64,000 nt of DNA from Escherichia coli (GTDB lineage Bacteria; Pseudomonadota; Gammaproteobacteria; Enterobacterales; Enterobacteriaceae). Below the pieces are notes generated by a model. It was not told the origin of the DNA and made no database searches. It saw only the letters and a program-made list of their open reading frames with translations. The stretch lies in the NCBI RefSeq assembly GCF_016903815.1, contig NZ_CP069973.1; one strand, given 5' to 3'. Below are positions 2,895 to 3,150 of the stretch, in pieces (position 1 is the first letter of the stretch; the number at the start of each line of letters is the position of its first letter). The position numbers and the translations under genes were made by a program.

Positions 2895-3150
2895 TCCCAC
2901 ATGCAGCAGAATAACCGCATCAGCGAAGATGTATTGTATTTTTACTATCACAATGTGTACGGACGGTTTATGGAAAAGAATGAACATTAGATACGCGATG
3001 CGGCGGCAGATTACACGGTTATCACTACGATAGCCAATACTGGCTGGTGCATTACCGCCGTGAACAATAGGACGCCGTACTGCTGGAAATTTCTTACCTT
3101 TATGACTCCCCGCACCGCCGTATCGGGAAACGGGAAGCAGTCAAGATGAG
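2895..3150 (+). pseudogene. Vestigial rhs core fragment (degenerate, frameshifted)
   Basis: Nucleotide and translated similarity to the main core region ~200-430 (YHNVYGRFMEKNEH vs [30 protein letters not shown] vs [24 protein letters not shown] vs LYDPLGRR), interrupted by stops. Confidence 0.6.

Follow-up and report, generated by a model that had tools for sequence, protein, structure and literature searches.

A decayed, unannotated Rhs core remnant among the immunity genes downstream of rhsB in Escherichia coli

Positions 2872-3133 of the 64-kb stretch of Escherichia coli DNA analysed here (the window; contig NZ_CP069973.1) contain a real, dead and unannotated remnant, about 260 bp long, of an Rhs toxin-carrier gene. 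In our reading, to which we assign a probability of roughly 85%, this relic is the non-functional remainder of an orphan core-toxin-immunity module that was gutted by a microhomology deletion. Its core segment resembles those of Salmonella and Citrobacter more closely than any of the E. coli cores with which it was compared.

Orphan rhs toxins of Salmonella were reportedly described by Koskiniemi et al. in 2014. Displacement of the C-terminal part of an rhs gene yields dissociated, or orphan, fragments that consist of rhs core plus tip, and the fragments found at an rhs locus fall into the same clade as its resident gene (Jackson et al. 2009, PMC2935791).

The rhsB locus and its downstream array

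The annotation was taken from strain 7/2 (NZ_CP023820), whose rhsB locus is 100% identical to the window over the region tested. The locus runs from nikR through a gene for a 1395-aa 'RHS element core protein', an array of small genes, IS1 and a truncated ISAs1 to yhhJ; the window starts inside rhsB and includes the final 477 rhsB codons, which end at 1615. Within the array that separates rhsB from yhhJ, the relic is found 1.26 kb beyond the rhsB stop codon, and the features around it are the following.

1612-2181: YbfC-like protein, first in the array after rhsB
2350..2697, plus strand: NTF2-fold immunity gene (Imm-NTF2-2; PF15631, E 7e-18; 'NTF2 fold immunity protein' in RefSeq)
2872..3133, plus strand: Rhs core relic (tblastn; no feature in RefSeq)
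3129..3134, plus strand: putative deletion junction AACGGG (side-by-side DNA comparison)
3129..3186, plus strand: remnant of an Rhs C-terminal toxin gene, final 19 codons (alignment to O139:H1 P15-25)
3200..3564, plus strand: DUF6258 gene, degenerate (PF19772)
3722..3765, plus strand: second, tiny Rhs core relic, E. coli-type (blastn to rhsB)

The RefSeq annotation has no feature between 2698 and 3279, and an annotated feature on the relic was found neither among the 38 full-length relic matches listed nor in the other records examined. A first-pass annotation made from the sequence had described a vestigial core fragment between immunity genes, and its neighbours are indeed of that kind, with the Imm-NTF2-2 gene upstream and the immunity-type DUF6258 gene downstream. 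The former constitutes the left flank of the relic-bearing block and has no toxin gene upstream of it.

Immunity-type genes that lack a toxin gene in front are found at 2350-2697, 3837-4214, 4296-4562 and 4652-5509. This toxin-less array 3' of rhsB comprises the NTF2-fold gene, a pentapeptide-repeat pseudogene, a second NTF2-fold gene (annotated as frameshifted) and the HEAT-repeat gene yibA. After yibA an orphan core-tip extends from 5536 onward, and the array is closed just before yhhJ by a complete IS1 (7236-7933) and a truncated ISAs1 (H-repeat) transposase gene (8115-8549).

The small relic at 3722-3765 is 84% identical to rhsB over 44 nt (blastn, E 3.5e-9) and is E. coli-type, unlike the relic at 2872-3133. 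Its translation, LPALIST*GTTA*YAE*, contains in-frame stops and corresponds to RhsB residues ~1152-1166; what is left here is the stump of the orphan that comes next in the array. BL21 has an RHS pseudogene annotated at the corresponding position (L002:8839-8925), and strain 7/2 has no such annotation.

Homology, limits and lesions of the relic

When the strain's own RhsB (1395 aa) was used as a tblastn query against the whole 64-kb window, it matched 2901-2984 in frame 3 (RhsB 919-946, 39% identity) and, collinear with that match, 3008-3133 in frame 2 (RhsB 959-1000, 57%), the two giving a linked E of 8e-10. An Rhs protein of Salmonella enterica subsp. houtenae (HAE4190457.1, here P0066) gave collinear matches in frames 1, 3 and 2 that together cover 2875-3133, with a linked E of 3e-20. 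At the nucleotide level the relic is 63% identical to the resident rhsB segment (z = 18.7 over shuffles), and an exhaustive phmmer search of 1.84 billion representative proteins returned 53 matches, of which those named or inspected are Rhs/YD proteins. Homology to the Rhs/YD-repeat core is thus supported by similarity that is both significant and collinear. The first-pass annotation, which had recognised core motifs across frameshifts and stops and had offered to withdraw the claim if the similarity proved insignificant, is upheld by both linked E values as well as by the shuffles.

The best phmmer matches moved the start of homology upstream to 2872, by way of a frame-1 segment, YREQYSALP; upstream of 2872, core similarity is no better than that of shuffles. 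The relic is read in frame 1 over 2872-2897, in frame 3 over 2898-2999 and in frame 2 over 3000-3133, the changes of frame being due to 1-nt deletions near 2897 and 2999/3000, and it is interrupted by TAG stops at 2988-2990 and 3068-3070. The limits first proposed, 2895-3150, do enclose core sequence but need adjustment at both ends, as the left edge lies ~23 nt further upstream and 3134-3150 is non-core, being out-of-frame sequence from the 3' tail of a toxin gene.

The relic spans Rhs core residues ~909-1000 and is an internal piece of the core, not its 3' end. It has no core end (PxxxxDPxGL), and the toxin is absent except for 19 codons. With two TAG stops, two frameshifts and a core that halts at ~1000, the stretch is not a functional Rhs core gene. 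It resembles an orphan module in being a partial core downstream of the main rhs gene, but the core 3' end and a complete tip are missing, only the final 58 nt of the latter being left. As had been claimed from the outset, it is more diverged than the orphan copy in the same array, with 63% nucleotide identity to rhsB, whereas the orphan at 5536-6009 is 89% identical to RhsB at the amino acid level (tblastn).

Lineage of the core

The relic was compared with this strain's RhsB, with RhsC, RhsD and RhsE of K-12, with ECs_0237 and the orphan ECs_0242 of O157 Sakai, and with Salmonella and Citrobacter cores. ECs_0237 is the vgr-linked Rhs of O157 Sakai at aspV-yafT, which we take from its map position to be the RhsG element.

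Alignment with the E. coli cores RhsB, C, D, E and G gives 49-51% amino acid identity and needs a gap of 12 nt (4 codons), and nucleotide identity to these five and to ECs_0242 is 56-66%, depending on the alignment; the E. coli core subfamilies differ mutually by ~20-25% of nucleotides in this segment. The cores of Salmonella/Citrobacter type align with the whole relic without gaps, at 75-77% nucleotide and 62-65% amino acid identity. For P0066 the gapless alignment has 201 of 262 identical nucleotides (76.7%) and 54 of 87 identical residues, or 57 of 88 when the second frameshift is placed in the GGC run. The linker, which reads EKNEH*IRD(G)GG in the relic, is 12 nt (4 codons) shorter than in all five E. 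coli cores tested, and a short ER.IRDGGG linker also occurs in S. enterica houtenae, S. bongori, C. amalonaticus and Citrobacter sp. wls619. At 20 sites that are fixed differently between the two groups, the relic has the Salmonella/Citrobacter state at 16 and the E. coli state at 2; with two reference cores the corresponding count of diagnostic sites is 24 to 3.

The gapless 88-codon alignment and the closest overall identity place the relic with the short-linker lineage, and it fell outside the E. coli subfamilies (RhsA-B-C-F, RhsD-E, RhsG-H) as represented by the cores compared (RhsB, C, D, E, G and ECs_0242). The short linker, the 16 of 20 sites and the higher nucleotide identity to the Salmonella type therefore indicate that the relic is not a decayed copy of an E. 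coli core of subfamily A/B/C, D/E or G. The first-pass annotation had left the choice between an older displacement and a donor from a different rhs subfamily, and had proposed alignment to the cores of the different E. coli subfamilies; in that alignment the relic stands outside all those compared, and the notion of a different donor is borne out by a Salmonella/Citrobacter-type core that matches at 77% without gaps, compared with 62-66% for the E. coli subfamilies.

The short-linker cores are ~60% identical to E. coli cores in amino acid sequence over ~450 residues, and because of this they may represent a non-E. coli branch of Jackson clade I, or else another clade. With the closest living core only 77% identical, none of the Salmonella/Citrobacter cores is the direct donor. 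A blastn search in 'distant' mode of all complete E. coli genomes revealed neither a less-decayed relic nor any resident core with DNA-level similarity, and a profile search gave short fragments only, none closer than about 62%. A word-indexed search for proteins similar to the reconstructed peptide yielded nothing beyond a 55-aa ORF, itself spurious, that had been called in another strain on the same relic, and a species-level genome scan for the motif NRI[SG]EDV.YFY found no closer donor, only E. albertii, with the same relic, and one Citrobacter with an intact core at 75% identity. The S. bongori LR134137 relative (P0002, 'core protein', 136 aa; L009:6001-7232) is a piece of a frameshifted, vgrG-linked rhs gene that is itself split into several called ORFs.

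Two less demanding explanations of these similarities have to be weighed. Rhs cores are internally repetitive, and one weaker, off-register match was seen (RhsB 714-753, E 0.036), as might be expected if the relic were a chance resemblance of repetitive YD-repeat-like sequence; yet linked E values of 8e-10 to 3e-20 with strict collinearity across three frames, a nucleotide z-score of 18.7 and a gapless 88-codon alignment that takes in the lineage-specific linker leave this idea with practically no credibility. It is also improbable, though somewhat less so, that the relic is an old and decayed resident E. coli core (RhsA-B-C-F, D-E or G-H) left behind by an early displacement with no foreign donor. 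Such an origin would agree with the position of the relic in a clade-I E. coli rhs locus among other orphans and with the reported rule of one clade for a resident gene and the fragments at its locus (PMC2935791), and strong AT-biased decay could have inflated the apparent divergence. However, it does not sit well with a linker 12 nt shorter that is common to the relic and the Salmonella/Citrobacter cores when all five E. coli cores have the long one, with the 16 to 2 division of diagnostic sites, or with 77% nucleotide identity to the Salmonella type as opposed to 62-66% to the E. coli cores. Moreover, blastn at a sensitivity of 65-70% found no match to the relic in 4551 relic-less genomes, even though E. 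coli generally carry rhs cores.

The right-hand junction and the lost toxin

The lead to the toxin came from a 32-nt match between the relic region and an annotated RHS gene of O139:H1 strain P15-25. This strain has an intact orphan made up of a core end, a 178-aa C-terminal extension and a 130-aa DUF6258 protein (toxin alignment L004:5156-6058). The window, BL21, O157 and E. albertii are homologous to the O139 toxin gene only from ~3129 on, so that what remains of the toxin is its final 58 nt, or 19 codons, …TGSNQDEADIMCGMPEYF (…NQDEADIMCGMPEYF*), with the stop codon TAG at 3184-3186.

The junction was set by side-by-side comparison of DNA from a Salmonella core, RhsB, the window and the intact O139 toxin gene. 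It coincides with a 6-nt microhomology, AACGGG (3129-3134), at which the core reads …ATCGGGAAACGGG and continues with TGTGG, and the toxin reads …ATGTCAACGGG and continues with AAGCA. The codon register at the join (marked by a slash) is …ATC GGG AAA CGG G/TG TGG in the core and …ATG TCA ACG GG/A AGC in the toxin, and the junction is identical in BL21, O157 and E. albertii. The shared hexamer is best read as the mark of a microhomology-mediated deletion, although at 6 nt it is short and could be a coincidence.

The complete toxin is present in 57 E. coli genomes, and ~550 others match its 3'-terminal piece only, which measures 72 nt in nearly every listed match. The main RhsB of strain TB06051 and the RhsA of O121 RM8352 each carry the intact toxin as their tip; both have an E. 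coli-type core, and both genes have an intact DUF6258 gene directly downstream. Every intact copy examined is attached to an E. coli-type core, and a Salmonella-type core contiguous with this toxin was found in none of the genomes examined. No Pfam domain was detected in the toxin (L004:5520-6058, and the copies in TB06051 and RM8352). A toxin-domain protein search gave 38 candidates, the best of them fragments at 55-69% from Rahnella, Diaphorobacter and metagenomes; this search was shallow, missing even the E. coli copies, and is uninformative on the original core of the toxin. The DUF6258-paired toxin contains an H-rich stretch, PHAHAHLPG.

The DUF6258 gene

In the window the DUF6258 gene follows the toxin tail, and in P15-25, TB06051 and RM8352 it directly follows the intact toxin; from this gene position it presumably encodes the cognate immunity protein of the toxin. 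The literature searched contained no mention of DUF6258. The domain (PF19772) is recognised with an E of 1.5e-15 in the window remnant and 6.7e-26 in the intact O139 copy. The reading frame in the window opens with an ATG at 3200 and has a run of seven A residues at 3235-3241, compared with eight in the intact copies of the O139 strain (L004) and of 2014C-3655 (L012), and the shorter run shifts the frame after codon 13. Furthermore, a TGG-to-TAG change creates a premature stop at 3562-3564, and RefSeq annotates only 3280-3564, as a 94-aa 'DUF6258 family protein'. By annotation the gene is full-length in TB06051 (L013) and O121 RM8352 (L014). In E. albertii the site of the A run reads G followed by seven A residues, which keeps the frame. 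Strain 2014C-3655 combines a relic split by an IS3 element with an intact DUF6258 gene, from which it follows that the toxin was lost first; the immunity gene decayed afterwards, in some lineages only.

Decay, age and distribution

The differences between the relic and P0066 are distributed over the three codon positions as 23/17/23, whereas in the functional pair RhsB and RhsD they are concentrated in the third position (10/10/37). Measured against P0066, 46 changes in the relic run from GC to AT and 10 from AT to GC, and the GC content of the segment is 48%, compared with about 62% in the coding cores of Salmonella type. To judge from the sequences, these substitutions have the signature of neutral, AT-biased drift without coding selection.

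Both stops, both 1-nt deletions and the right-hand junction recur unchanged in BL21 and O157, where the relic is at the rhsC locus, and in E. albertii NBRC 107761. Since these lesions and the junction are common to copies at different loci and in E. albertii, all the inactivating events predate the separation of the copies, and the relic is old. The earlier suggestion of an older displacement event was therefore correct as regards age, but displacement alone is not sufficient, as a later internal deletion is needed as well. The E. albertii block is 92% identical to window positions 2203-3765, and the E. albertii relic keeps a few more Salmonella-like states (78.6% identity to P0066).

According to blastn, 875 of 5426 complete E. 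coli genomes carry the relic at 95-100% identity, and it is found at the rhsB and rhsC loci of E. coli as well as in E. albertii. The NTF2 gene with its flank is present in 845 E. coli genomes, a number similar to the 875 of the relic, each set being counted on its own. K-12 lacks the relic block, and ISAs1 remnants there replace the part after ybfC. A block composed of a YbfO-type Rhs tip, a YbfC-like gene, the NTF2 gene, the relic and DUF6258 lies at rhsB in this strain and at rhsC in BL21 (L002) and O157 (L003), which indicates that entire downstream arrays move between rhs loci.

The relic shows no sign of present-day function. Rfam has no match on it, promoter-like sites within it are at chance level and terminator-like sites are absent. 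Between the window and E. albertii the relic is 93.5% identical and the adjacent non-coding spacer 93.1%. An IS3-family element inserted within the relic at ~2963 is tolerated in 2014C-3655 (L012:5753-6931). Short ORFs are sometimes called on the relic (P0001, 55 aa; P0005, 29 aa), and those called vary between strains through indels, such as a 5-nt deletion in O157.

Proposed history

Built on the homology, lineage assignment, junction sequence, shared lesions and decay pattern described above, the history that we infer takes core and toxin to have been one gene before the deletion, estimates the size of that deletion and casts DUF6258 as the immunity protein. The ancestor would have been a Salmonella/Citrobacter-type core truncated at its 5' side and starting from ~909, then a C-terminal toxin, then the DUF6258 immunity gene, all situated as an orphan downstream of the main rhs gene, the position predicted by the C-terminal-displacement model. 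Two AACGGG hexamers, at core codon ~1000 and 58 nt ahead of the stop codon of the toxin, would then have been the end points of an illegitimate deletion of about 1.2 kb, in which the remaining core, with its conserved end, and almost the entire toxin would have been lost. This would have left ~88 core codons fused out of frame to the final 19 toxin codons, with the immunity gene downstream. The stump would then have drifted neutrally, acquiring two stops and two frameshifts and falling in GC from ~62% to 48%, and the block of NTF2 gene, relic and DUF6258, with a YbfO-type tip and ybfC upstream, would have travelled as a passenger between rhsB and rhsC loci and along the lineages of E. coli and E. 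albertii.

An alternative to the single-gene origin is that the deletion joined two unrelated neighbouring modules, namely an orphan with a Salmonella-type core, whose own toxin and immunity genes have since disappeared, and the toxin tail and DUF6258 of the next orphan, which would have had an E. coli-type core. This we consider unlikely but worth keeping in mind, as every intact toxin copy examined is attached to an E. coli-type core and rhs arrays hold several orphans in series. It would, however, call for a larger deletion and an extra lost module that has left no trace, and no intermediate array was seen among the loci examined; the single-gene reading is simpler, though not proven. A rather different objection is that the stretch is retained for a present role, be it as a small ORF, as an RNA or promoter for the downstream immunity gene or as a patch of homology for recombination. 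That it persists, at 93-100% identity, in E. albertii as well as in 875 of the 5426 E. coli genomes, and that gene callers sometimes place short ORFs on it, could be cited in support, but those ORFs differ between strains through indels, IS3 interrupts the relic in one strain, Rfam is blank and promoter and terminator motifs are not in excess. Its conservation, moreover, equals that of the neighbouring spacer, and 63% identity to resident cores makes it a poor substrate for homologous recombination, so that a present role seems very improbable.

The history can be tentatively extended. It is conceivable, though we would not rate it as probable, that the toxin and DUF6258 entered the ancestor of E. 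coli and E. albertii on a core of Salmonella/Citrobacter type and were recaptured by E. coli-type cores, and that the foreign copy was gutted by deletion.

Comparison with other rhs fragments

In several respects the relic is like the orphan rhs fragments already described (PMC2935791): it is found downstream of a main rhs gene, among toxin and immunity remnants that form a low-GC array, it consists of a 5'-truncated core followed by an immunity-type gene, and it is silent and made degenerate by stops and frameshifts. It is unlike them in lacking the core end and almost the whole tip, the result of a second event, an internal deletion, and in having a core from a lineage other than that of the resident gene. 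Typical orphans are near-identical direct repeats, as is the orphan at 5536-6009 with 89-95% identity, whereas the relic stands at 63%.

Among the pseudogenes of K-12, the closest parallels are ybfO (rhsO), ylbH and yibJ, which are partial rhs cores located 3' of rhsC, rhsD and rhsA, respectively, and beside immunity genes. These keep an E. coli-type core (97% at the nucleotide level for ybfO) up to the core end together with a complete C-terminal extension; the relic, in contrast, is an unannotated internal piece of ~260 bp with a core of foreign type. The core homology of ybfO (L005:6149) starts at RhsC residue 899, ~10-15 codons from the left edge of the relic (~909), a proximity that may be a coincidence or may point to a preferred breakpoint in the core. 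The best sequence relatives are in S. enterica houtenae (HAE4190457.1), S. bongori (VDZ81388.1) and Citrobacter sp. wls619 (L016), but those cores have a GC content of ~62%, are coding and belong to long Rhs genes, whereas the relic has 48% GC, is interrupted and is non-coding.

Significance

The relic is an ordinary pseudogene, a small footprint of the traffic in toxin modules, and its importance is modest. For annotation, it represents a recurrent and so far unannotated pseudogene in ~16% of complete E. coli genomes, including BL21 and O157:H7, on which gene callers occasionally make spurious short ORFs. It also makes the history of the array readable, from an orphan module, through loss of the toxin by microhomology deletion, to an immunity gene that was kept and later inactivated by slippage. 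Were the toxin indeed an import on a foreign core, it would now be the active tip of RhsA or RhsB in some strains, and the relic would break the reported rule by which all core fragments at an rhs locus match the resident gene in lineage, and would be a dated example of the acquisition of a new Rhs toxin, older than the E. coli and E. albertii copies. In this way a short stump of a core hints at Rhs toxin modules arriving on cores from outside the E. coli radiation.
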